Part shown: positions 26,690 to 58,002 of the stretch, one piece after another
How positions within the stretch are numbered: position 1 is the first letter of the stretch
Layout: each line of letters opens with the position of its first letter
NCBI GenBank assembly: GCA_021613535.1
Contig: CP075497.1
Span: forward strand, 8,157,488-8,221,487
Reading direction: 5' to 3'
Source: Adineta vaga
Taxonomy: Eukaryota; Animalia; Rotifera
DNA: 64,000 bases
Translations under genes and position numbers: made by a program
The notes under the pieces: model-generated
Told to the model about the DNA's origin: nothing
Database searches by the model: none
What the model saw: the letters and a program-made list of their open reading frames with translations, nothing else

Positions 26690-29372
26690 ATGGCAGACAC
26701 ACTGATTGATGACGAAACTATTGATGTTCGAACATCGTCGAATAGACCAGGAGCATCAACTACTAGTTCGCAAATAACAACGACGACACGTCGACCAATG
26801 TATATCGAAACTGAAGTACGTACCGATACGGTAACAACACGTCGAATGGCATCGGCTGCTGCTAACAGAAGCGTTCATGATGTACTTGAAAATACCAAAT
26901 CGCCAACTCTGTATGTATTTGTTTTCAATTAAGTTCTTTTTCTCTATTCAAGTATTGTTTTCTTTTGCTAGTGATCGACCACCGACAAGTTATTCTTACT
27001 CTCAAGGGTATGTAGATTTAAACTATTATTTTCAATGATAAGTCTTGCCTTAAGATAGAATTGAACTTCTTTTTCTGTTTTCTCGAAAAGTTCATTGTTA
27101 GTGATTTCTGATGGGCATTATCATAATCGAAAGTAATTAAGAAATTTAAACAAGTACATCGTATCGAATGATTTGAAGCTTAAGAAAATGAGCTTTAAAT
27201 TGAATACCTTAGAGCGATAAAAAAAATAGCTCGAGGCTAAATGTATAAAAATATTGAGCTATCATTCATCACCATCATATATTCTTTCTAGTGCATTAAT
27301 ATCTTTTGTTCTTTAGCAATTCATATGCACCTGGGTCACGGTCTGGTGCATACGACATTTCTGCCGCATCTCGACGTAGTTCACATGGCGGCTATCAAAA
27401 TGGTACGGAATCCACTCTTGCATCAGCATTCTCATCACCATCTGAATTTTTGTCGACGGTTCGAACACAATTATCGAATGGTTATGATGCTGTCCGTGAT
27501 CGTATAACTCAGTTTACTGGTCATCACGGTTTAGCACCTAATTCACCAACACGTGGTTTAACAAGTGGTGGTTCACGATATACCCGTACATCATCTCAAT
27601 CATCGGCGACAGGTAGCCGATCGAAAGGATATAATCTTCGTTCGCGACCAGTTCATTCCACACCTCGAGATACTGATAGTGATCATACAAGTCATCGTAA
27701 AACAACAACAAAACATCGAAAAGAACATAATCAACAGGGTGAAATTGATGAAGAAGATGATGACGAAGAAGAAGAAGAAGAACATAAAGGTCCACAATCT
27801 TATTTAAATAGAGCAATTCATTATATTAAACGAGTTTTTCGTTCACCCATCGATATTTTTGATACTGTCTGGAATAAATTAAAAGCTTTACCATGGTGGT
27901 TACTTATACCACTTTTATTACTTGTTGCCCTTTTTACTAGTAAGTTTCTTTCACGCATTGAACCATTTCATCTATTGATATCTTTATTCTATTTTAGTAC
28001 CTCCTTTTGCTTGTAAACCATTAAAACATTTACTTCATCCTAAAGTAAATGATGCATGTCGCGATGTTCAACATTTGACAAAAGACTTAAGTGGTAGTAC
28101 GTATGATTTTACTCGTCGCCATACGTATGACCGTGGTGTTCGTAATCTTAAACAAGTTTATGGTTCAGCACAAGATCTAAAAAATTCAGTATTAAACTCG
28201 TTGAATGATGTTTATTATTCACTGAAACAAACTTTACGTGGTTCTGTGGGTGGCGTGAAAAATCGAGTTACTGATGCTGTTGAAACTACAGCAGAGAATG
28301 CAAAGGAATATTATGATGCTGGTATTCAAAAAGTCAACCATCTTATCGAAGAACTTAAACAAGAAAGAGAAAAAATTCTTGGAGCGTAAGTGATTTTTTT
28401 TGTCAAAATCGAATCACTGATTTATTCAATTCAATTCAATTCTATTTAGTCGACATACATTAAAACCCGATGAAGAAAAAGAATTATCAGCGGTATGTAA
28501 AACTTTAAAAAAGAAAAAGAACAAAGAATGAATTAAGATTTTTATTATAGATGGTTCGTAAATTAATCGATGAATATGCAGCCGATGAAACAGGTCAAGC
28601 AGATTTTGCACTTGAAGCTAATGGTAAATAAAACGAATATTAATCACATATCCAATAACCTCTTGATATGCATTTTTAGGAGGCAAAGTTGTTGATACAC
28701 GTTGTCATGAATACACCGATGAACCACGACAAAATGTTGTCAAATTTCTTGGTATTCCTATTGTTCATATGTCAAAACAACCTGATATTATCATCAAAGT
28801 AAATATTCTATTGTTTCTAAAATTCCTATAAATACAAACAATCTTTTTATTCAGCATGGACGTATGCCTGGTCAATGTTTTCCATTTAAAGGTGATCGTG
28901 GTAGTGTTGTCATTCGATTAGCTGTACCTGTTGTACCAACTGAATTCGTACTTGAACATTTATCGAAAAGTATTTCAATTGTTGGTCATATCAATAGTGC
29001 ACCGAATAATTTTACAGTTTATGCAAGTGCAATAACGAAAAAAAATCGTCATAGTATATATATATATTGTTTTTTCTTCAGGCTTTGAAAGATAAACATG
29101 ATAAAGAAGGTGTTGTTCTTGGTCGATATTTTTATGATGCAGAAAACGGTCCAGCTCTTCAGAGATTCAAACCTCAAGTATGTTGAAAATCGAGAAAATG
29201 CTTGAGAAATATTCATTATATATACATGTATCCCTTTTAGATTGCTAATATACCTGTTGTCGAATATATTGAAGTTCAAGTAACATCCAATTGGGGTAAT
29301 CCAAATTATACATGTTTATACAGATTTCGTGTACATGGCGACATGCAAACTGTCTCACCAACAGCTGCGTAG
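26690..29372 (+). CDS. SUN domain-containing nuclear envelope protein (gene span, about 9 exons)
   Basis: The start reads MADTLIDDETIDVRTSS... The N-terminal half is S/T/R-rich, followed by a transmembrane segment (LPWWLLIPLLLLVALFT) and a coiled-coil region (ORF 28075..28389). C-terminal exons encode HGRMPGQCFPFKGDRGSVVIRLAVPVVPTEFVLEHLSKSISIVGHINSAPNNFTVY / LGRYFYDAENGPALQRFKPQ / IANIPVVEYIEVQVTSNWGNPNYTCLYRFRVHGDM. That is the conserved Sad1/UNC-84 SUN domain, including the ...SNWG.P.YTC.YR.RVHG signature. Stop TAG is at 29370-29372. Confidence 0.8.
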
Positions 29373-30447: not shown

Positions 30448-33400
30448 ATGAGTAAAACGACAACAACAACAAGTACCGAAAATAAAATTGTTTCTGGTCC
30501 AGTTTACCGTATTCCACCATATCATTATATTCATGTTTTGGATCAAAATACGAATGTAACACGATTAGAAATTGGTCCAAAAACATTTATTAAACAAGAC
30601 AATGAATCAGTTATTTTTGGACCAGAAAAAATGATTACAGTTCCGTATGTATTTCTGTCTAAATTGATATAAAAATAAATCTAAAGATAAAATTTTTTGT
30701 AGACCACGTCATTATTGTGTTGTGGAATCACCAGTTGTACGTAATGAAGCAGGCGAAGTTGAATTTGATAAAAATGGTCAAGCAAAATTGATCCATGCAG
30801 ATTTGGATATTCGTCTTGCACGAGCTGATCAAGCTCCATTTCCTCTCTATCCTGGTGAAGTTCTTCGACAAGTATAAATTTCGAACGTTTTGTCAGATGA
30901 AAGTAGAACAATGTTTGTTATATTCTATGTTTAGCCTGTCACTCCATTAAAAGTTGTTCCAGCTAATTCAGCTTTACGATTAAAAGCTGTACTTGATTTT
31001 GACGATGAAACAACAAATGAACAACGACGTGCTGGCGATGAATGGTTATTTGAAGGTCCAGCAACTTACATTCCTCGTAAAGAAGTTAGTGTCGAAGAAC
31101 AAATTCGCGCCACTGTAATTGGTTCTAATCAAGCTATTCGACTTTGTGCTAAAAAAGAAATTAATGATCGAACAGGTCAAAAACGTGTCACTGGCGAAGA
31201 ATGGTTGGTTAAGAAAACTGGTGCTTATTTACCACTTGCTTATGTAAGTTTTAATGGAAAAATTTCTTTCTGTATGAAATATTTATTATTATCATCGAAA
31301 ATTTTTAGGAAACAGTTGTTTCAGTAGAAAATGCTTATGTTTTAACTGATAAGAAAGCACTTCATCTCCGTGCATTAAAAACATTTACTGATGATTTTGG
31401 TAAAGTACGTATGAATGGTGAAGAATGGCTTGTTACTCTTGTCGATACAGAAACACATATTTTGAGTGTGTATGAACAATTAGTTGCTGTTGTTGATGTA
31501 ATCACATTGAGTTCTCGACAATATTGTGTTATTATTGACCCAGTAGAAGATGGAAAACCACAATTAGGAAAAAAGGTTTGTAATGAAACAACCTTTTATT
31601 TATTCGAAATTAATTATATGTGATTTTCTTTTCGGTTTAAATAGAAACTTGTTGTGGGCGAAAAATCATTTTTTCTTCAACCAGGTGAAAAATTAGAAAA
31701 TGGTATTCAAGATGTTTATATATTAGGTGAAGATGAGGGTGTCATTCTCAAATGTATCGAAGCATTTGAAGATGAACAAGCTAAAACTAATCGAAATCCT
31801 GGTGATCGATGGATGATTCGTGGACCAACGTAAGACTTGAGATAATCATTGAAATTCCAATCTATTTCTATGTTCATTTCAGTGAATATATTCCTCCAAC
31901 ACAAGTAGAAGTTGTTACACGTCGAAAAGCAATTCCTCTAGATGAAAATGAAGGTATCTATGTTCGTGATATAAAAACTGGTCGTGTAAGAGCTGTTGTG
32001 GGTGAAACATATATGTTAACACAAGATGAAGAACTTTGGCAAAAAGATTTACCTAAACAAGTTGAAGATTTATTAACACGCGATGCATTAGTTGATCGCA
32101 ATATTCCAACACGTAATCAAACATCTGATAAAAATCAATCTCAACAAAATACAACTACTTCAAAATCAAGTTCAACGAAACGTGATAAATCAAAACTTGT
32201 CACTTATCGTGTTCCACATAATGCTTGCGTACAAATTTATGATTATAAAGCTAAAAAAGCACGAATTGTTTTCGGTCCTGAACTTGTTATGCTTGGACCT
32301 GATGAACAATTTACATTACTTTCTTTAAGTGGTTGTGTTCCAAAGAAACCTAATCAAATCCAATCACTCTGTTTACTTCTTGGTCCTGATTTTTTTACTG
32401 ATGTAATTGTAATTGAAACAGCAGATCATGCACGTTTATCTCTTCAACTTTCATACAATTGGCATTTTCAAGTAGCGGATGTGACTGATGAAAAGGAAGC
32501 AGCAAAATTATTTTCCGTACCAGATTTTGTTGGCGATGCAGCTAAAGCCATTGCTTCTCGTGTTCGTGGCGTTGTTGCAGGAACACAATTTGATGATTTT
32601 CATAAGAATTCTGCTCAAATCATTCGTGCAGCTGTCTTCGGTCTTGATACTCATCAGCATGTACGTGATCAATTAGTTTTCCCACAAAACAATCTTGCTA
32701 TCACCTCCATTGATATTCAAAGTGTTGAACCTGTTGATCAACGAACACGTGATGCACTTCAAAAGAGTGTTCAATTAGCCATTGAAGTAAGTGATCTATG
32801 TGTATATATACTAAATGATTGGTAATATGAATGAATAATTTAGATTACAACTAATTCACAAGAAGCTGCTGCTAAACATGAAGCTTCTCGTCGAGAACAA
32901 GAAGCTAAAGGTTTATTAGAACGACAACGTATTAAAGATGAAGCTGATGCGGAAGAAGTTCGAAAACAACTTCTAGAATTACAAGCTCTATCAGCTGCTG
33001 TTGAATCAACTGGTCAAGCTAAAGCAGAAGCTCAAAGTCGTGCTGAATCAGCACGAATTGAAGGAGAAGCGGCTGTTGAGCAAGGTAAAAGAAAATAGAA
33101 GAAGAAAGAGATTTTTATTAATTGTGTTAAATTGTTATTCTTACTTTTAATAGCTCGTCTTAAAGCTGAAGCTACACGTATCGAAGCTGAAGCAGAATTA
33201 TCACGTTTGAAATTAGCTCGTGAAGCTGAAATCAAATTTGTACGTGATCAAAATGAATTGGAAATTGGAAAGAAAGGTGAAATGTCAAGAATTGAAACTG
33301 AAAAATTCAAATTACAAGTGGAATCAATTGGTGCAGAAACAATTCAGTCGATTGCTACGTCTGGTCCTGACACTCAAGTTAAACTTTTACAAGCACTTGG

Positions 33401-33554
33401 CCTTCAATCAATGTTGGTTACTGATGGACATACACCTATCAATCTTATGGGTTTTGGACAAGGTTTATTAGGTGGTTTAAATGGAAATATGAAAAATAAA
33501 TCGAGAACAACAACAGCTAGTTCAGCCAACTACCGTGTCCATGAAGAAGATTAA
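30448..33554 (+). CDS. MVP: Major vault protein, paralog 1 (gene span, about 9 exons, introns 50-70 bp)
   Basis: Exon 1 is [66 protein letters not shown]. Later exons encode [15 protein letters not shown]...[22 protein letters not shown], then the MVP repeat domains ([51 protein letters not shown]), then the shoulder region ([42 protein letters not shown]...[44 protein letters not shown]...[35 protein letters not shown]), and finally the C-terminal coiled coil. Alignable to vertebrate MVP along its whole length. Stop is at 33552-33554, with AATAAA about 135 nt downstream. Confidence 0.93.
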
Positions 33555-34330
33555 ATATCAACAATGATCTTTTCTTAAAGTAAAAGAAATGAACATGAGC
33601 CGTCCTTGTATTCGTTCGTATTGTTAATGTATGTTTTTTGTCAAAGAAATTTAGTATGAATTTATTTATAAAAATATCTATATGATCAAATAAAGATTAA
33701 AGTATTTTTTCGTATATAAAATCTTCTTATTATTCGATTTGTTGTGTACTTTTAATACAATGAAAAGAAAACAGAAGAATTTATAAGTTGTTTAACTTGC
33801 TACGAGCACACATACATTTTCTTGCTGCGAACAGTTTTGTTTTTATTCCTTTTGAAAGAAATAAGTCGTACAACAGCTTTGATAGATACTTCGAATTTCT
33901 ATGAAATGTCAAACTACGCGTGACATTTTTGAATAGATTCCATGCGAGTTTTTTTTGTAAAATATTGAAAAAAATCGAATGAAGTCTACTAATTCACCAC
34001 TAAAATATGTTTTTTGATAAAAATATACTGTTCAATACAACTTCAATGGACAATAATAATCTACAAGAAATTTTTCATATTCGTCAAGATAACTTATTTC
34101 AATATAGATCAATTAGTTTTATGAGTTCGAACAGTTTCTTGGAGATAAATATAATAGTGATGATCGATTAAATTTTCAATATAATGATCAAATAAACATT
34201 TATTTTTTCCGAATTAATGAAAGAAAAATACAAATTTTTAATGGCAAAATCTGACATATCTCAGGTCTACACAATTACATAAATATAAAACTCAATAATT
34301 TTCTAAAACATGGTTTCTTTTTTCGTCTCT

Positions 34331-37300
34331 TTAAGAACTTGTTGATGTACCAACTAAATCCACTGCAGTATTGAATAGATTAATTGGACTACGTCCATCC
34401 GTGATCAATGTTGATTTTATACCAAGAGCTTGAAGAAGTTTAACCTAAATAGATAATATGCAATTAGAAATATTTGGAAAAACAGAATTTTATATGGAAT
34501 CTTTACTTGATTATCTGGTCCACTAGTAGCAATAGCTTGTATAGTTTTTGGTCCAATAGCCGTTACATGTTCTTTGAATTCTTCGATTTCAATATTGGCT
34601 AATCGTTTAGCTTTATTAATTTCAAGATCAGAAACTAATTTCGAATAACTTAATTCTAATTCACGTGATTGTGTTAATCGAAAAAGTTCAATATCAGTTT
34701 CGATTTTCACTGCTTGAGCACGAAGAGTGGCTAAAAATCAATATATATATATATGAATCAAGCTAAACTATAGAGAATATATCAAGCAAACCTTGTTCAA
34801 CAGCAGCTTCTCCTTCAATTTTTGCTGCTTCAGCTCGTGATTGAGCTTCAGCACGTGACTGACCGGTGGATTCAACAGCAGATGAAAGTGCTTGTAGTTG
34901 TAATAGATTTCGACGTGCTTTTTCAGCTATTTAAAATAAAAAATATTAATATATAAATTCAAAAGATAACTTATATTTACCTTCTGCTTCATCAGCAATT
35001 TTCTGTCGTTCTAAATGACCTTTGGCTTCTTGTTCCGTTCGTGAAGCTGTGTGTCTATAAGAACAAAACTTTCGAACTATTGAAATTCTTCTATGAAAAA
35101 GTCAACTTACTTGGCTTGAGCTTCTTGTGAATTAGTTGTAATCTAAATTATTCATTCATATTACCAATCATTTAGTATATATACACATAGATCACTTACT
35201 TCAATGGCTAATTGAACACTCTTTTGAAGTGCATCACGTGTTCGTTGATCGACAGGTTCAACACTTTGAATATCAATAGATGTGAGAACGAGGTTATTTT
35301 GGGAGAAGACGAGTCTATGATTAACACGTTTATCTTCATTAAGACCAAAGACAGCTGTACGAATAATTTTCGCTGAATTTTTATGAAAATCATCAAAAGA
35401 AATGCTTGCAACTGCTCCACGAATTTTTGCTGCAACTGCTTTACAAAAATCACCAATAAAATCTGGTACAGAAAATACTTTTGCAATTTCTCTTTCATCA
35501 CTATAATCCTTGATCTAAATAATCGATAACAGATTCTATTTGTTTTTCATTCAAATGACAAATCTTACTTCAAAATGCCAATTATATGATAGTCGAAGTG
35601 ATAGACGAGCATGATCACTTGATTCAATCGTTACAGTATCACTTGAAAATTCCGGTCCCAATAATAAACAAATCGCACGAATTTTATTTGGTACTTTAGG
35701 TTTTTCACCGGATAAATTCAAGACTGTAAATTGTTCATCAGGTCCAAGCATAACAAGTTCAGGACCGAAAACAATTCGTGCTTTTTTAGCTTTATAATCG
35801 TAAATTTGTACGCAAGCGTTATGTGGAACACGATAATTAACTACTTTTGATTTATCCCTAGCTGGTATATTGATTGATGCAATTGATTTATCTTCAAATG
35901 ATCGAGGATCTTGAAGAAGAAGTTGTTCAACTTGTTTAGGTAAATCTTTTTCCCAAAGTTCTTCATTTTCAGTTAAGAGATAAGTGCTGCCGATAACGGA
36001 ACGAATTTTACCCGTTTTAACATCTCGAACATAGATTCCTTCATTAACATCTAATGGTATAGCTTTACGACGAAGTACAACAGCAGCTTCAACTGCTGGA
36101 ATATAATCTTTTGGACCACGAACCATCCAACGATCACCAGGATTACGAATAACTTTCTATATCACAAAAAAAAAATATCATAAAGAAATGAAAGTAAACT
36201 TAGACGTACCCCATCTTCTTTGAATGATTCAATACAACGAAGGATTAAACCTTCATCTTCTTCAAGTACATACACATCTTGAATACCATCAGCTAACTTT
36301 TCACCAGGTTGAAGAAAGAATGTTTTTTCTCCCTGAAGAAAAAGAAATATTAACATCTAATTTCATTTTATACTTTAGAAAATATCTTACTTTCACAAGT
36401 TTTCTTTTTCCAAGTTGAGGTTTACCATCCGAACCTATTGGATTGACGATGACACAATACTGACGTGAATTTAAAATCGTAACAGAGACGATACCAACAA
36501 CCTAGACAAAATTTTATTATTTACTTTTACTTATCTCTCAAAAATGAATTGATTTTTATCTACCTCTTCATAAACATCTGGAATGTATGTTTCAGTATCA
36601 CTCGCATAGACTAACCATTCTTCACCATGAAGACGTTTACGTTTTAATGAATCAATAAATGTGCCCAATGCTCGAACATGTAACGCTTTCTATAAAACAA
36701 GAAAGATATAATGATGAAAATTAGACTAGATCTCAAATACTTTATCGGTTAGAACATAAGCTTGAACTGTGGAAACAACTTCTTCGTAAGCTAATGGTAA
36801 ATAAGAGCCATTTGTACGATTGAGCCATTCTTCACCTGTTTGTCGTTGAATGTCATCACGATCAATCATTTCTTTTTTTGCACGTAAACGAACAGCTTCA
36901 TTCGGTTTAAGAATAACTGCTTTAATTTGTTCTTCAACACTAACTTCTTTACGTGGAAAATAAGTTCCTGAAAAAGAAAATATAAAACTTGATTTTATGA
37001 TTTCAAAATATAATCGAATTCTTTTCTACCTGGCCCATAGAAGAGAAATTCATCTCCTGCACGGATTTGTTGATCTTGATCATCGACGAAATCTAAAACA
37101 GCACGAAGACGTAATGCACAATTTGGTTCAATAACTTTCAATGGTGTTATTGTTTGTTTAAGTATTTCACCAGGATAGAGAGGAAATGGTTCTTGAGCAA
37201 AACGAATATCAACATCAGAATGTAATAGTTTAATTTGACCATTGGTATCTGTTACAACTTGACCATTTTTATTACGAATAGCTGGATTTTCCACAACACA

Positions 37301-37604
37301 ATAATGACGAGGTCTATACAGATGCAAATAAAATGGCATAGAAAAAAAACATCAACTCATGAATTTCAGACATACGGAATGATCAACATGCGTTCTGGTC
37401 CAAGAATAACTTTCTCATGATCTTGTTTTACAAATGTTTTTGGACCAACTTCAATTCGAGTTACATTTGTATTTTGATCCAAAACATGGATATAGTAAAA
37501 TGGTGGAATTCGATAAACTAAAATATCAATATCTTTAAAGATAAGAACAACAACGAATAAAATATTATGTTCTTACCACCACCCGTAGTCTTTGTATCGG
37601 ACAT
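34331..37604 (-). CDS. MVP: Major vault protein, paralog 2 (gene span, convergent with paralog 1)
   Basis: Minus-strand start is MSDTKTTGG. Exons then read [43 protein letters not shown]; [95 protein letters not shown]; the middle exon of ORF 35551..36126 ([49 protein letters not shown]...); and a C-terminal coiled coil ending ...[37 protein letters not shown]. Same domain order as paralog 1, but clearly diverged in both protein and DNA sequence. Confidence 0.9.
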
Positions 37605-38355
37605 ATTTATTCTTTTGCGACTGATTTATGTCTGAGAGTAGAAAAGATTCTTACAAGCCCTTTTATTTAGAAGAATGAATGTCGACACACGTATGACATG
37701 TTGTGTATATGAAATAGGAAATAACGGGGTTGTGTAGGAGAACATCTTTTTCAATTCAATTGTGCAATGACACAAGTAGAATTGCACGATCAACTTAAAA
37801 AAACAAGAAATTCTTAGATAAAAATTGCAGTTTATTCCCATTGTCAAGCAAGAAAAGGGTTAGAGAACAGAAAAGAAAGAGAGTGAATAAGAGAAGAACG
37901 AAAAAAAACATCACCTTATAATTTAGTATTGCATTTTTTTGACGAAAAGTTTGAAAATCTATTCTTTTCATACGATGGTGAAACTCATCTTTTATTGATC
38001 ATCGAGGTATGACCGATATATTGTGCAAATGATTGAATAGTGATAAAAGAACATCTCATTTCACTAAAATAGAAAGATTATATGAAAGTCAAAGTAATCA
38101 ATACAGTTCAGAATACATGAACGTATTTTTTTGTTTAAACAGTAAAACTATTCTTTTAAGAAGTTTTTCTTTCATTTATGATTATTTTATTTTATTTAAC
38201 AAACACATTCCTATCATAATAAAACAGAAGTTTCTTTCAACAACATTAGATAAAAATAACAAATAGTAGTGAAATATGATTCGCTTTATACAATTAACCA
38301 ATAAAATGATATTGAAATCGTATATAATTTCTTAAACTTCTTTCATTGCTATTTA

Positions 38356-39706
<1,351 letters not shown>

Positions 39707-44933: not shown

Positions 44934-46088
44934 ATGGAAAATTCTTCATTAAATATTTCGATCAATTCATCATCAGAATATTCCTCGAATACATTGGAAT
45001 TTTTCTTTAAATACATTTATCTCCTATTACTTGTCATTATTGGTGGAATTGGAAATGTTTTTGTCATTGTTATTTTCGGTCAACGAGCAGTTCGAACGAC
45101 TGTTCAATATGTTGGATCAAGTATGTCTGTTTATCCATTTCTATTCTATATGGCTATATCAGATACAATCTATTTAATTATTATCTTTTGTTTATGGTTA
45201 TCCAATTATATCAATGTTTTATATCGACCAGGTATTTGTCAAGTTACATTATATTTAACATACGTATGTAATTTTATTAATGCTTATTATACAATTGCAT
45301 TTACAACTCAACGTTTATTTGCTGTTATTAATCCATTTCGAGTATCACATTTTCTTTCGTGGTATCGATCACGATGTTTAGCATTATCAATAATCACTTT
45401 TGCTTGCGTATTCTATTCGTATTTATTGATTACAATTCATATGGATAACAAAACATGTTTTTCTCGTCCACATTGGCATTTATTTAATAAATATATGGAT
45501 GTTATTGATAGTATTATTGTTTTTCTTATTCCATATATAATTATAATTACAATGAATGCTATCATTGTTATCTCATTACGTCGTATGAAACAAAATCGAC
45601 ATGAATTTCTCTTTGAAAATCATTCTCGATTGAATAAAATTCGTGAAATGACTCGACGAAATGCATCACGAAAAATGACGAAATTACTTTTAACTGTTTC
45701 AACATCTTATCTAATTATATGTGCACCATATGCATGTATTCATACATGGCGTTTATTATTTGTTAGTGAAGAAAAATATGAAAATTCACCTTTGATTAAA
45801 TATTTCGAACATTATTCACATTTAATCTATCATTTATCTTTTGCAATGAATTTTTATATTTATATTGTTTTTGGATCAAAATTTCGTCGTGAATTAAAAC
45901 GATTTTGTAGCAGATCAAAACAAAGTCTCTATCACTGTTTTCATGAACAACACGTGTTTGACAATGATAATCATATTGAAGTTGAATTATCGGAAAAAAA
46001 TTCAACTGTAACTGTTGAATATACATTACATACCAATTTAAAACAACATTCAATGAGACCTTTTTTTTGTTGTCATTCTCAAGTGTAA
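44934..46088 (+). CDS. Intronless rhodopsin-like (class A) orphan GPCR, 384 aa
   Basis: A single 1155-nt ORF. It has an extracellular N-terminus with N-glycosylation sites (NISINSS) and seven hydrophobic helices. Class A landmarks are present but variant: GNVFVIVIF in TM1, AISDTIYLII (Asp) in TM2, CQVT...TQRLFAV at the TM3 end in place of DRY, and NFYIYIVFGSKFRRELKRF in TM7/helix 8 in place of NPxxY. The basic third intracellular loop reads RRMKQNRHEF...RRNASRKMTK. Confidence 0.75.
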   Translation: MENSSLNISINSSSEYSSNTLEFFFKYIYLLLLVIIGGIGNVFVIVIFGQRAVRTTVQYVGSSMSVYPFLFYMAISDTIYLIIIFCLWLSNYINVLYRPGICQVTLYLTYVCNFINAYYTIAFTTQRLFAVINPFRVSHFLSWYRSRCLALSIITFACVFYSYLLITIHMDNKTCFSRPHWHLFNKYMDVIDSIIVFLIPYIIIITMNAIIVISLRRMKQNRHEFLFENHSRLNKIREMTRRNASRKMTKLLLTVSTSYLIICAPYACIHTWRLLFVSEEKYENSPLIKYFEHYSHLIYHLSFAMNFYIYIVFGSKFRRELKRFCSRSKQSLYHCFHEQHVFDNDNHIEVELSEKNSTVTVEYTLHTNLKQHSMRPFFCCHSQV

Positions 46089-46321
46089 ATTGTATTTTGA
46101 GAGAATATATACAGGAATAAATTATATTCATAAGAAGAGTGGTTATCTTTTTATTTTATGTATCTTCAAACGAAGAACTCTTATCATTCAGTATTTATTT
46201 TACTTCATTTTGGAAGTTATGCAGACAATGTCTTTAGATTTCGCTTTTTTTTCTCGTTGATATTGTATCTTAAATGATATTTGTTTTTTCTTTATGTAAC
46301 TATAGAAAAAAGAAGCTAAAC

Positions 46322-48018
46322 AATGTCGGATGCAACTGCAACAACAAATGGTTCGATTTTCTAGGAATTTATTGAAAGATTTTGAGATTTTCATTTTTTT
46401 CTTAGGAGTTAAAGTGAATAAATTTGACGGCGATGGTGTGCCATTTAAAGCCAAACTTATTGGTATGCTGGAGAATAGATGAAAATGTGCAGAAAAAACT
46501 AAATTTTGTTTTTTTTCTCTCTGTTACATAATAAAGGAATGGAAGATTTATCAATCGATCGTGACGAAAAAGTATGTCTTGATTCAATGATCAAATTGAA
46601 AGCAATGGTTCGTGTTCGTGGAGAACATAAACAAAAACTTCAATTAAATTTAACAATGAATGGTATTAAAGTTTATGATGATACAACTAAAGTAGAAAGA
46701 AATTTTTTATTTCGTTTATTAAATTAAATTCAAATGCTTATTGTAGGTTCAAATTGCTTCTCATGAAGTGGAACGCGTATCATTCGTTGTATTAGATCCA
46801 CGTGATCAACGAGCATTTGGATATGTTTATAATACTAGTGATGATCGTCATCAATTTTGGGCAATTAAAACTGAACGACAAGCAGCTCTTACTGTATTGG
46901 CAATGAAAGAACTTTTTGAAACAGCATTTGAAGAATTTACAAAATCAGAAAAAGCGAAAGCACAAGTAAATCAAACAACAGTATCAACAAACGTAACGGG
47001 CTCAACACAGGTCTCAATTAATAAAATGTTTCAGTGATTTATGAAATATTCTTGTTTTAGGTACAACAATCAGTGTTTCCTACAGTTCCTGCGCTATCGT
47101 CACCAGTAACATCTTCACCGCCAGTAGTAAGTGTGATATTTAATTGTTTTTGTTTTAAATTCGTTAAAATGTGAAGGCACCCGTTGGAGAAATACTTTGG
47201 GGAGACGAACCTGCGATACCATCTTTTCCGCCGGTACCGCCAGTACAAACGTCTCAACAGTTACCGCCGCAACAATCTGTACCTGCAGGTGATTTATGGG
47301 GTATGGATGATCCTGTTATACCTCCAACTCAACCACCAAGTGATGTAAGTTCTTTTCAAATTTCGTACTTTAGATATTTGATAACGATCTATTTTTCTTA
47401 AAGTCTCTTAGCGATCTATTTGATTCACTTGGACCACCACCACCACCGCCAGTAACAACAACAGCAGTACCAAGAATACCAACGATACCAACCATGCCAA
47501 CAGTACCATCGATACCAGTAACTAATCAACAAGCGCCAACTACTGCTCCGACCACTGATATATTTTCAATGTTTGCATCTCCTGCACCAACATCTAATGT
47601 TAATAATAGTATGTTTGTTCAATCACCACCGCGACCATCTACTATTGCTCAGCCGCAACAACAACAACAACAACAACTACAGCAATCAAACTTGCTGTTT
47701 TCTTCACCTACACCTGCCTTTGTTCCTCAACAACAACAACAACCAAACCTGCTCTTTTCTACGCCTGCACCTGTCATTGTTCCTCAACAGCAGACATTAC
47801 AACAACCAAACCTACTTTTTTCGACACCTGCACCTGCCATTGTTCCTCAACAACAACAAAACTTACTCTTTTCTACACCCTTACCTACACCTACCCTCCT
47901 CAACCAACAACAACCATCACAACCAAATTTGTTGATGTCTACACCTGCACCTGCTGTTATTCCGCCAACAGCTACCAAACCAGTTGATGAATTCGATTTA
48001 CTTGGCGCTTTTTCATAA
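46322..48018 (+). CDS. Disabled (Dab1/Dab2-like) PTB-domain endocytic adaptor (gene span, about 6 exons) with C-terminal Q/P-rich repeat region
   Basis: Exons: MSDATATTNG / VKVNKFDGDGVPFKAKLIG / MEDLSIDRDEKVCLDSMIKLKAMVRVRGEHKQKLQLNLTMNGIKVYDDTTK / VQIASHEVERVSFVVLDPRDQRAFGYVYNTSDDRHQFWAIKTERQAALTVLAMKELFETAFEEF. These match the Dab PTB/PID domain block by block (FKGDGVKYKAKLIG, DSMMKLK, HKQRI..N.S..GIKI.D, ISF...D..DNRAFGYVC, HQFFAIKT). The C-terminal exon (ORF 47494..48018) carries five degenerate copies of (Q)nPNLLFSTPAPAIVPQQ and ends DEFDLLGAFS. Confidence 0.75.
47640..47900. repeat. Five degenerate tandem repeats of about 54-60 bp in the Dab coding region, encoding QQQQ(P)NLLFS(T/S)P(A/L)P(A/T)(F/V/I)VPQQ
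   Basis: Directly visible. The motif aacctgctcttttctacgcctgcacctg recurs with point variation at roughly 47690, 47745, 47805, 47860 and 47925. Confidence 0.85.
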
Positions 48019-56520: not shown

Positions 56521-58002
56521 ATGATTGACACTCACAAGTTACTCTCGTCTTTATCCGATACAAAAACGAATATTGTCTTATTACTAAATGGATGTTTTAA
56601 TCCAATACATAATAATCATATTCGTCTATTAGAAATTGCACGAGAACATCTGAATTCATTGAATCAATATCATATACTCGGTGGATATGTTTCTCCGACA
56701 CATGATTCAGGTATTCAACGAAAACTATCAACAATTCATGTAACATGGCAGGCTCGTTTAGAAATGTGTTGTTTAGCTGTTCATGATTCATCATGGATCA
56801 TGATTGATGGATGGCAAATAGCACAAGAAAAAAATCCTGGTGCTCAACAATCTAAACAACATTTAAAAGATATTTTAAGTAAATCTTATCCTTCAATTGA
56901 AGTTGTATCAGTATGTGGAGGTGATGCTTTACCAAAATTCAAAGTAACATTTAAAAAAGAATTGGTTGTCAGTATAATTAATCGACCAATTGAAGAATTT
57001 GATTTTGAACAATGGTTTTATTCATCGGCTATTAAACCATTTCATGATAATATTATTCTTATATATGACAAGCAATGTAATAAATATATGAGTAGTACAA
57101 ATGTTCGTCGACGAATCAGCGAGAATCGTTTGGATCTATTGATTGATGATCTTCCTCAGTCGATACTTGATTATCATCGTCAACGAGGTATAACTTATCG
57201 TTCTGTAAATGAAACAATTCTTTGGTCAGAATTAAATGAAAATGAAACTATTGAACTTGGACAAGGTCGTTGTGCCACAGTTTATGCGAAAGAATATAAA
57301 AATCAACAAGTTGCTGTTAAAGTAATTCGTGAACGTAGACAATTTGAAAATGAATTGAAAGTTTTAATATCATTAGTTAATGATTCATCACATCACGTAA
57401 ATATTGTTCAAATATATGGTATTGGTGATCAATTTTGTGTCATGGAAAAATGTGATATTGATCTTCTTTCATATATTCAAAAGAATCGAATTTTAACAAG
57501 TCAAACATTGATAACAATCTTTCCAAATTTGCAATGGCTTAATTTCATTAAACAAATGTTAAATGGATTTGTTCATTTAATTTCACTTGGAATTCTTCAT
57601 CGGGATATAAAAACAGATAATATTCTTCTATCCAATATGATTGTGAAAATATCAGATTTTAGTGTATCAATGAATGTCAATTCAATGACAAAAGTGCCAT
57701 GTAGAGGTTCTATACGTCATTATGCACCTGAAGCTATTGAAGATAAACATGTTTATACAGAAAAATGTGATATTTATACGTTTGGATGCTTACTTTATGA
57801 GATAGTTCATGGTGGACAACGTGTTTGGCATGACATTAGTACATCAGATGTTGTTGGTCGACGATCAAATGGTGAAAAACCGATGTTTTCTGTACAGTGT
57901 GAACCATGGTATATTGATACAGTAGTACATGATTGTTGGGCAATGGATAGTAATGAACGACCGACATTTGAGCAGCTATTAGAAAATATTTCGACGAAAT
58001 AA
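56521..58002 (+). CDS. Intronless fusion protein: N-terminal NMN/NaMN adenylyltransferase (NMNAT)-like domain plus C-terminal protein kinase domain (493 aa)
   Basis: A single uninterrupted ORF. Residues ~16-230 read IVLLLNGCFNPIHNNHIRLLEIAREHL...ILGGYVSPTHDSG...ARLEMCCLAVHDSSWIMIDGWQ...VVSVCGGDALPKF...YMSSTNVRRRISENRLDLLIDDLPQSILDYHRQRGITY. These match NMNAT signature blocks ([58 protein letters not shown]..YI). Residues ~245-490 are a eukaryotic protein kinase domain: LGQGRCATVY (Gly loop), VAVKVI (VAIK), HRDIKTDNILL (catalytic loop), ISDFS (DFG variant DFS), HYAPEA (APE), DIYTFGCLLYEI and CW..D...RPTF. Confidence 0.7.
   Translation: MIDTHKLLSSLSDTKTNIVLLLNGCFNPIHNNHIRLLEIAREHLNSLNQYHILGGYVSPTHDSGIQRKLSTIHVTWQARLEMCCLAVHDSSWIMIDGWQIAQEKNPGAQQSKQHLKDILSKSYPSIEVVSVCGGDALPKFKVTFKKELVVSIINRPIEEFDFEQWFYSSAIKPFHDNIILIYDKQCNKYMSSTNVRRRISENRLDLLIDDLPQSILDYHRQRGITYRSVNETILWSELNENETIELGQGRCATVYAKEYKNQQVAVKVIRERRQFENELKVLISLVNDSSHHVNIVQIYGIGDQFCVMEKCDIDLLSYIQKNRILTSQTLITIFPNLQWLNFIKQMLNGFVHLISLGILHRDIKTDNILLSNMIVKISDFSVSMNVNSMTKVPCRGSIRHYAPEAIEDKHVYTEKCDIYTFGCLLYEIVHGGQRVWHDISTSDVVGRRSNGEKPMFSVQCEPWYIDTVVHDCWAMDSNERPTFEQLLENISTK

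Follow-up and report, generated by a model that had tools for sequence, protein, structure and literature searches.

Two convergent major vault protein genes in Adineta vaga

The 64-kb stretch of DNA from the bdelloid rotifer Adineta vaga that was analysed here (hereafter the window) contains two complete genes predicted to encode the major vault protein (MVP), designated MVP1 and MVP2, which face each other tail to tail. Judged by sequence and gene order, the pair is an ancient inverted (tail-to-tail) MVP duplication that has long been retained and is common to bdelloid rotifers. The region is AT-rich (~32% GC), and the gene models were built from open segments on each strand joined at frame-keeping GT-AG junctions, which gave the following features.

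30448-33554, + strand: MVP1 gene (ATG at 30448, stop codon ending at 33554; 8 exons, 890 residues)
30448-30644, 30703-30871, 30935-31243, 31309-31575, + strand: MVP1 exons 1-4
31645-31829, 31883-32786, 32844-33084, 33154-33554, + strand: MVP1 exons 5-8
37604-34331, - strand: MVP2 gene (ATG at 37604, stop codon ending at 34331; 14 exons, 840 residues)
37604-37577, 37517-37376, 37313-37030, 36967-36741, 36689-36564, - strand: MVP2 exons 1-5
36501-36391, 36332-36210, 36156-35569, 35514-35200, 35142-35111, - strand: MVP2 exons 6-10
35054-34981, 34926-34792, 34730-34507, 34444-34331, - strand: MVP2 exons 11-14
33555-34330: spacer between the two stop codons (776 bp), containing both predicted 3' untranslated regions (3'UTRs)

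Both reading frames are free of internal stops, and all introns are 53-69 nt long, short as is usual for a compact animal genome. Independently, a repeat finder reported the two genes as a series of inverted-repeat arms that are 73-89% complementary. These coordinates agree with a previous sequence-only reading of the window, which had described two complete, convergent MVP genes with stop codons about 780 bp apart. No further MVP sequence was detected in the window by tblastn. Rfam and tRNA scans found no family or tRNA anywhere in the window, so neither the spacer nor the introns hold a vault RNA or a different known RNA.

Both predicted proteins are members of the MVP family with the full MVP architecture. 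Each aligned with human MVP from residue 7 to ~850 in one stretch (E=0), and the Pfam domain calls were above every curated cut-off in both proteins. The bit scores for MVP1 and MVP2, respectively, were 216.6 and 210 for Vault, 112.9 and 118.2 for Vault_2, 121.8 and 118.9 for Vault_3, 73.7 and 57.8 for Vault_4, and 172.9 and 163.4 for MVP_shoulder (PF11978), of which the whole 118-position profile was covered. The cap-helix domain and the start of the cap ring are collinear with the solved MVP, the single phmmer stretch reaching human residue 850/851 in both proteins. The repeat domains, shoulder, and cap helix that had previously been assigned to both paralogs were borne out by the Pfam matches and the alignment with human MVP, and we infer that both proteins would be shell subunits of vault particles.

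Database records provided outside support for the models. The annotated A. vaga protein I4U23_029823 (648 residues, partial; on a 13.9-Mb contig) corresponds to MVP2 residues 1-648 at 100% identity, which corrects the flatworm origin guessed in the sequence-only reading. It stops exactly at ...QLAIE, the end of MVP2 exon 9 (35200), directly beside the converted intron described below. An A. vaga MVP1 protein at 100% identity was not among the database search matches, and an exact-sequence look-up of a 338-residue open reading frame (ORF) of the window returned no record. The single named close match of the first homology search was Adineta steineri, and an A. ricciae MVP (888 residues) aligned with MVP1 end to end at 91.7% identity. 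Two intron-free contigs from JGI samples (L013, 2757 nt; L014, 2752 nt) harbor a single 841-residue ORF, which shares 85% identity with MVP2 in an alignment containing one 1-residue gap, and a 2881-nt contig (L015) harbors an 892-residue MVP1-type ORF. These intron-free contigs were read as transcripts of related bdelloids.

Age and conservation of the MVP pair

The bdelloid database matches split into two groups, MVP1-type (~855-904 residues) and MVP2-type (~840-860 residues). In neighbour-joining trees (837-840 columns, 200 bootstraps), the MVP1 and MVP2 clades obtained bootstrap values of 93 and 100, respectively. Since both clades hold Adineta, Rotaria, and Didymodactylos, the trees show that the duplication predates the crown of Bdelloidea. 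The monogonont clade (Brachionus) was placed outside the MVP1 and MVP2 clades, and the node joining these two was supported by only 39-48%. The MVP1 clade contains further subclades, each with both Adineta and Rotaria. Bdelloids are old tetraploids, and these subclades would fit this tetraploidy. In addition, MVP ORFs of two non-rotifer sequences (P0031 and P0037, probably one 31165-nt contig) were sisters in the tree, which hints at an independent MVP duplication outside rotifers.

The genes flanking the pair in the window and the convergent pairs identified in relatives were as follows.

26789-29288, + strand: SUN-domain (Sad1_UNC) gene, neighbour upstream of MVP1 (Pfam match; L007 collinear; neighbour also in L001 and L002)
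38353-39694, - strand: triose-phosphate-transporter family (TPT) gene, downstream neighbour (Pfam match and tblastn with L007 TPT; neighbour also in L001 and L007)
L001, 3.27-Mb ENA contig: convergent pair, flanked like that of the window by SUN and TPT
L007 and L008, JGI contigs: convergent pair, in the order TPT, MVP2, MVP1, SUN
L009, Didymodactylos carnosus GCA_905250885.1: convergent pair
L011 and L012, Rotaria sp. Silwood1: convergent pair

A check of synteny in relatives, which the sequence-only reading had put forward, therefore finds the convergent pair again in Didymodactylos, Rotaria, L001, and L007/L008. The comparison of the window with L007 (window ~44968-47004, L007 583-5768) revealed a syntenic PID-domain gene, G-protein-coupled receptor (GPCR) gene, TPT, MVP pair, and SUN gene. 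A sulfite-oxidase-like gene (Cyt-b5, Oxidored_molyb, Mo-co_dimer) and an Exostosin-family gene were present in L007 only, relative to the window. In Rotaria sp. Silwood1, the MVP2-type model of L011 (10001-17961) spans 7.9 kb and has a weak LRR_6 match, and is probably an annotation fusion with a neighbour.

Divergence and selection

MVP1 and MVP2 share 64.5% protein identity over 865 columns (BLASTP), and their coding sequences (CDS) differ at 29% of nucleotides. MVP1 has seven introns and MVP2 has 13, with only three positions common to both (MVP1 residues 66, phase 2; 678, phase 0; and 758, phase 1), and so few shared positions point to an old duplication. MVP1 differs from MVP2 by a Ser/Thr/Gln-rich insert in a loop and by the greater length of its C-terminal tail, which is short in MVP2. 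Divergence is highest in the distal cap helix, where amino-acid identity falls to 40-55% (MVP1 residues 751-810). Over residues 766-810, the nucleotide distance was 0.42-0.51 between the paralogs versus 0.16-0.24 between A. vaga and L007 orthologs. MVP2 is the more divergent copy, as its identity to Lottia MVP is 66%, compared to 70% for MVP1.

The clear divergence of the paralogs described earlier, C-termini included, is upheld by this level of identity, the differing tails, and the loop insert. The N-termini quoted at that time (MSDTKTTGG in MVP2) and the Ser/Thr/Gln-rich insert of MVP1 were found in the models, but MVP2 does not read IPPYHY. Near-identity of the copies, the mark of an assembly artefact, was likewise not observed, given the 29% difference between the CDS and the unlike intron structures. 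An assembly duplicate or allelic palindrome was rejected on the CDS difference, the 64.5% protein identity, and the 8 versus 14 exons; an allelic palindrome in particular does not agree with a 29% CDS difference and a difference in 17 intron positions.

Codon alignments to the orthologs in L001, L002, L005, and L007 gave ratios of nonsynonymous to synonymous substitution (dN/dS) of 0.057-0.081 for MVP1 and 0.070-0.103 for MVP2. The comparison between the paralogs gave a dN of 0.275 and a dN/dS of 0.33. The ortholog ratios show strong purifying selection on both predicted genes. This rejects the reading of either copy as a pseudogene, in agreement with the earlier view that both genes are complete; both frames are intact and the ortholog dN/dS is 0.06-0.10.

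Gene conversion between the paralogs

Two short tracts of near-identity were identified between the diverged copies.

32709-32866, + strand: tract B, MVP1 arm (158 nt aligned with 35277-35120, the single mismatch being at 32735; perfect run of 131 nt)
35277-35120, - strand: tract B, MVP2 arm (includes intron 9, 35199-35143)
32205-32315, + strand: tract A, MVP1 arm (111 nt, 2 mismatches against 35835-35725; perfect run of 75 nt)
35835-35725, - strand: tract A, MVP2 arm

Tract B runs from the end of MVP1 exon 6 through the complete intron 6 (32787-32843) into the beginning of exon 7, and is located at the boundary of shoulder and cap helix (LAIE|ITTN). Tract A is located in the R9 repeat region, among the most conserved segments. 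The intron within tract B is identical between MVP1 and MVP2 at 57/57 positions, whereas three other introns at shared or near-shared positions match at 33-41 of 58-69 positions, which equals the shuffled controls. The tract borders are sharp, with flanks that are ~30% different. When only codons at which both genes encode the same degenerate amino acid were counted, the two longest stretches of codon identity spanned 25 and 24 codons (permutation p = 0.005 for a run of at least 25).

The distances to orthologs showed the same pattern; for L001 MVP1, the stretch at MVP1 residues ~676-750, where a faulty codon mapping yielded distances of 0.6-0.8, was excluded from these calculations. In tract A, the A. 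vaga paralogs differed by 0.05 versus 0.11-0.19 for the orthologs, and in tract B by 0.04 versus 0.09-0.24. The relation was reversed over the whole CDS, with 0.29 for the paralogs versus 0.16-0.23 for the orthologs. At the level of nucleotide sequence, these comparisons show two recent gene-conversion tracts between the inverted copies, one of which transferred a whole intron. The tracts with their identical intron are the most unusual feature of the locus, and were absent from the sequence-only reading.

Similar signals were present in related bdelloids. The two introns at the tract B site of L001 are identical at 41/52 positions (best of 300 shuffles, 37) and unrelated to the A. vaga intron. 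In L007, the tract B distance between the paralogs was 0.07 versus 0.10-0.13 for the orthologs. The tract A distance between L002 and L005 was 0.07, and a difference of only 7% suggests that the MVP1-type genes of L002-L004 and the MVP2-type genes of L005-L006 share one genome and still exchange sequence. An intron at LAIE|ITTN occurs in both paralogs of A. vaga, L001, and Didymodactylos (the Didymodactylos pair being mutually unrelated), and is without trace in both L007 paralogs and in L002 and L005. In Rotaria L011, a pattern search for the junction peptide gave no match. From the matching presence or absence of the intron in both paralogs, its position is read as ancestral to both and its state as having evolved in concert.

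These signals would be explained most simply by repeated short exchanges without crossover, which start in the best conserved parts of two inverted copies that are 2-3 kb apart. Bdelloids are known for frequent gene conversion between homologous copies. Ectopic conversion between inverted paralogs, including intron transfer, is known from the globin genes of Chironomus, for example. As in concerted evolution of the Chironomus type, the bdelloid pair exhibits short near-identical tracts in diverged inverted duplicates, a homogenised intron, and matching presence or absence of that intron. Unlike such cases, the bdelloid signal is found in the same gene segment across several lineages. Three short metagenome contigs (P0015, P0021, and P0022) are 76-81% identical to both MVP1 and MVP2 overall and cluster with one type over residues 476-678; these are either assembly chimeras of the paralogs or true conversion products.

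3' ends, promoters, and expression

Signals for 3'-end formation and shared upstream motifs were located as follows.

33689-33694, + strand: MVP1 poly(A) signal AATAAA, 135 nt past the stop codon
34204-34199, - strand: MVP2 poly(A) signal AATAAA, ~127 nt past the stop codon
30215-30324: two TTGCACAAT sites (C/EBP-like) in front of MVP1, at 233 and 132 nt from its ATG
37759-38028: two TTGCACAAT sites (C/EBP-like) in front of MVP2, at ~155 and 416 nt from its ATG

The 3'UTRs of the transcript-like contigs of relatives are 104-131 nt long, and together with the poly(A) signals these predict ~450 nt between the 3' ends of the two genes. The antisense overlap of the 3' ends that had been considered from the sequence is therefore not predicted.

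The motif TTGCACAAT occurs five times in the window versus 1.27 expected (0/100 shuffles reached 5), and four of the five sites fall at most 430 nt upstream of the two MVP start codons. One site recurs at an equal offset upstream of L007 MVP1 (L007 15404-15412), within a conserved block of ~90 nt.

Five MVP genes have been reported as over-expressed in A. vaga after radiation or rehydration by Moris et al. (2024, PMC10809525). Two adjacent MVP genes in that study, FUN_011957 and FUN_011958, are nearly equal in abundance (base means 8758 and 8625, respectively) and in induction at 2.5 h after X-rays (log2 fold changes 2.55 and 2.48; Table S5, PMC10809525). The stage-specific or differential expression suggested in the sequence-only reading finds no support in these values, the only expression data found, although the adjacent pair may belong to another locus. 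In the same study, radiation strongly induced vault PARP-like genes (PARP4-like, with VIT and vWA domains; log2 fold change ~4.5), and other vault components may be co-induced with MVP. A C/EBP-like bZIP gene is itself given there as radiation-induced in A. vaga (PMC10809525). Given the TTGCACAAT sites upstream of both genes and the joint induction published for two adjacent MVP genes of A. vaga, MVP1 and MVP2 would be co-regulated.

Elsewhere in the window, an intron-free ORF of 493 residues (56521-58002, + strand) is an unusual fusion of an N-terminal nicotinate/nicotinamide-mononucleotide adenylyltransferase-like domain (CTP_transf_like, TIGR00482) and a tyrosine-kinase-like protein kinase domain.

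Comparison with known vault systems

Both A. vaga proteins share with human and rat MVP (PDB 4V60, 7PKR, and related structures) the same repeat domains, shoulder, cap helix, and start of the cap ring over residues 7-850, and differ in being encoded by two genes instead of one. Compared to human MVP, MVP1 has an insert in the loop at about human residues 429-450 and a tail that is 26 residues longer, and the tail of MVP2 is short. As in the case of MVP1, MVP2, and MVP3 of T. brucei and MVP alpha and beta of Dictyostelium, several diverged full-length paralogs have been kept across a clade. Experimental evidence for mixed shells exists for T. brucei MVP1-3 and Dictyostelium (Zavrelova et al., 2025, PMC12547018). 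On the other hand, T. brucei and Dictyostelium are protists in which co-assembly has been shown, whereas the bdelloid pair, for which co-assembly is a prediction, is linked tail to tail and exchanges sequence. The divergence of the bdelloid pair (64.5% identity) is milder than that of the trypanosome paralogs (52-58% similarity, PMC12547018).

The study by Moris et al. (2024, PMC10809525) concerns the same species and the same family, and lists the adjacent pair FUN_011957/FUN_011958. The convergent arrangement, its conservation, the orthology groups, and the conversion tracts were not found described in the passages and table rows consulted. Similarly, a limited literature search did not find a bdelloid-wide pair, the two orthology groups, or conversion tracts with a shared intron. 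As far as these sources extend, what is already known comprises multiple annotated MVP genes of A. vaga, from one transcriptome paper, and the MVP paralogs of protists.

Possible functions of the pair and alternative explanations

The locus as a whole is probably best explained as an ancient, bdelloid-wide convergent MVP pair that is under selection, locally converted, and likely to be co-regulated and co-assembling. By analogy with trypanosomes and Dictyostelium, MVP1 and MVP2 would most likely co-assemble into mixed shells. In such shells, the longer disordered loop and C-terminal tail would come from MVP1, and MVP2 would be the compact subunit, its distal cap helix having diverged. The hetero-oligomeric shells suggested in the sequence-only reading remain a reasonable conjecture. 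In a bolder form, bdelloid vaults would be obligate mixed shells, built from a co-regulated convergent pair that is inducible by radiation and desiccation; recurrent conversion at the cap-helix base and in R9 would be more than a consequence of sequence similarity and would keep the subunits compatible for co-assembly, in a lineage known for its repair of DNA breaks, and the concerted intron state would be a by-product. This bolder form is regarded as rather improbable.

Several observations weigh against the explanation as a whole. With a bootstrap support of 39-48, the duplication may have come either before or after the monogonont split, and the synonymous sites are saturated (proportion of synonymous differences, pS, ~0.5 in all ortholog and paralog comparisons), so the duplication is not datable from dS. 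One lineage has no MVP partner within 10 kb, with the MVP1-type gene beside SUN (L002-L004) and the MVP2-type gene beside GPCR and ACE genes (L005 and L006). FUN_011960 is an Exostosin-family gene, and when the L007 region that holds an exostosin gene next to SUN was used as a tblastn and tblastx query, no exostosin gene was found in the window. As this neighbour has no counterpart in the window, the published co-induced pair FUN_011957/FUN_011958 may be another locus. We infer co-assembly purely by analogy, and the strong divergence of the distal cap helix, the segment in which the paralogs differ most and which packs laterally in the shell, could favour separate particles. Finally, the vault particle has 78 subunits and the half-vault has 39 (rat vault structure), so a strict 1:1 alternation of two subunits is impossible.

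Separate particles are the content of the one serious rival, an alternative already raised in the sequence-only reading, in which subfunctionalised paralogs form homo-oligomeric vaults that differ by tissue, stage, or cargo. It accords with a distal cap helix and C-terminal tail that are diverged between the paralogs and conserved within each orthology group, with the different loop insert and tails, and with intron structures and promoters that differ, the shared motif aside. It is nevertheless considered unlikely, because mixed particles are indicated in both known multi-MVP systems, the TTGCACAAT motif lies upstream of both genes, and the only expression data found, which concern an adjacent A. 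vaga MVP pair that may be at another locus, show near-equal abundance and induction. The decay of one copy, most plausibly MVP2, or its conversion into a non-vault gene would explain why MVP2 is the more divergent copy (66% versus 70% to Lottia MVP) and why its NCBI model is partial. This reading is barely credible for a gene with a frame that is complete across 14 exons, a dN/dS of 0.07-0.10, a full-length alignment with human MVP, a spliced 841-residue transcript-like contig in a relative, and orthologs kept in Adineta, Rotaria, and Didymodactylos.

The near-identical tracts allow for two further explanations, in place of gene conversion. Selection on the nucleotide sequence itself, through a splicing element or an intron-embedded RNA, would suit the position of tract B on the most conserved MVP peptide and its short intron, whose ancestral position also holds an intron in Didymodactylos. 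Such constraint is hardly to be expected, because the intron is not conserved between species: the A. vaga intron resembles that of L001 or Didymodactylos only at the shuffled level, and it is missing from both L007 paralogs and from L002/L005. Furthermore, the Rfam scan of the window was without match, and the synonymous sites are identical within the genome but different between orthologs. Alternatively, the tracts could be produced in assembly or polishing by cross-mapping of short reads, which can generally homogenise short paralogous stretches, or the whole pair could be an assembly palindrome, as has reportedly once been the case in A. vaga. An artefact of this kind is very unlikely, since 29% of the CDS positions and 17 intron positions differ, and independent assemblies show a similar pattern (L001 introns, 79% alike; L007 tract B, 0.07; L002/L005 tract A, 0.07). 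Moreover, intron presence or absence agrees between the paralogs in every genome examined. Gene conversion between two long-retained paralogs therefore remains the preferred explanation of the tracts.

Implications for vaults and bdelloid genomes

The function of vaults is still unclear, and vaults with multiple paralogs have been studied only in protists; bdelloids would be an animal case. They possess two long-retained MVP isoforms as well as ohnolog-like copies, in animals that tolerate desiccation and radiation, and MVP is among the reported radiation-induced transcripts. These results do not overturn current views, and their value is that of a defined, testable locus. On a small scale, the locus cleanly illustrates ectopic conversion between inverted paralogs in which an intron is transferred as well, and bears on how intron presence or absence spreads between gene copies and on conversion in bdelloid genomes.

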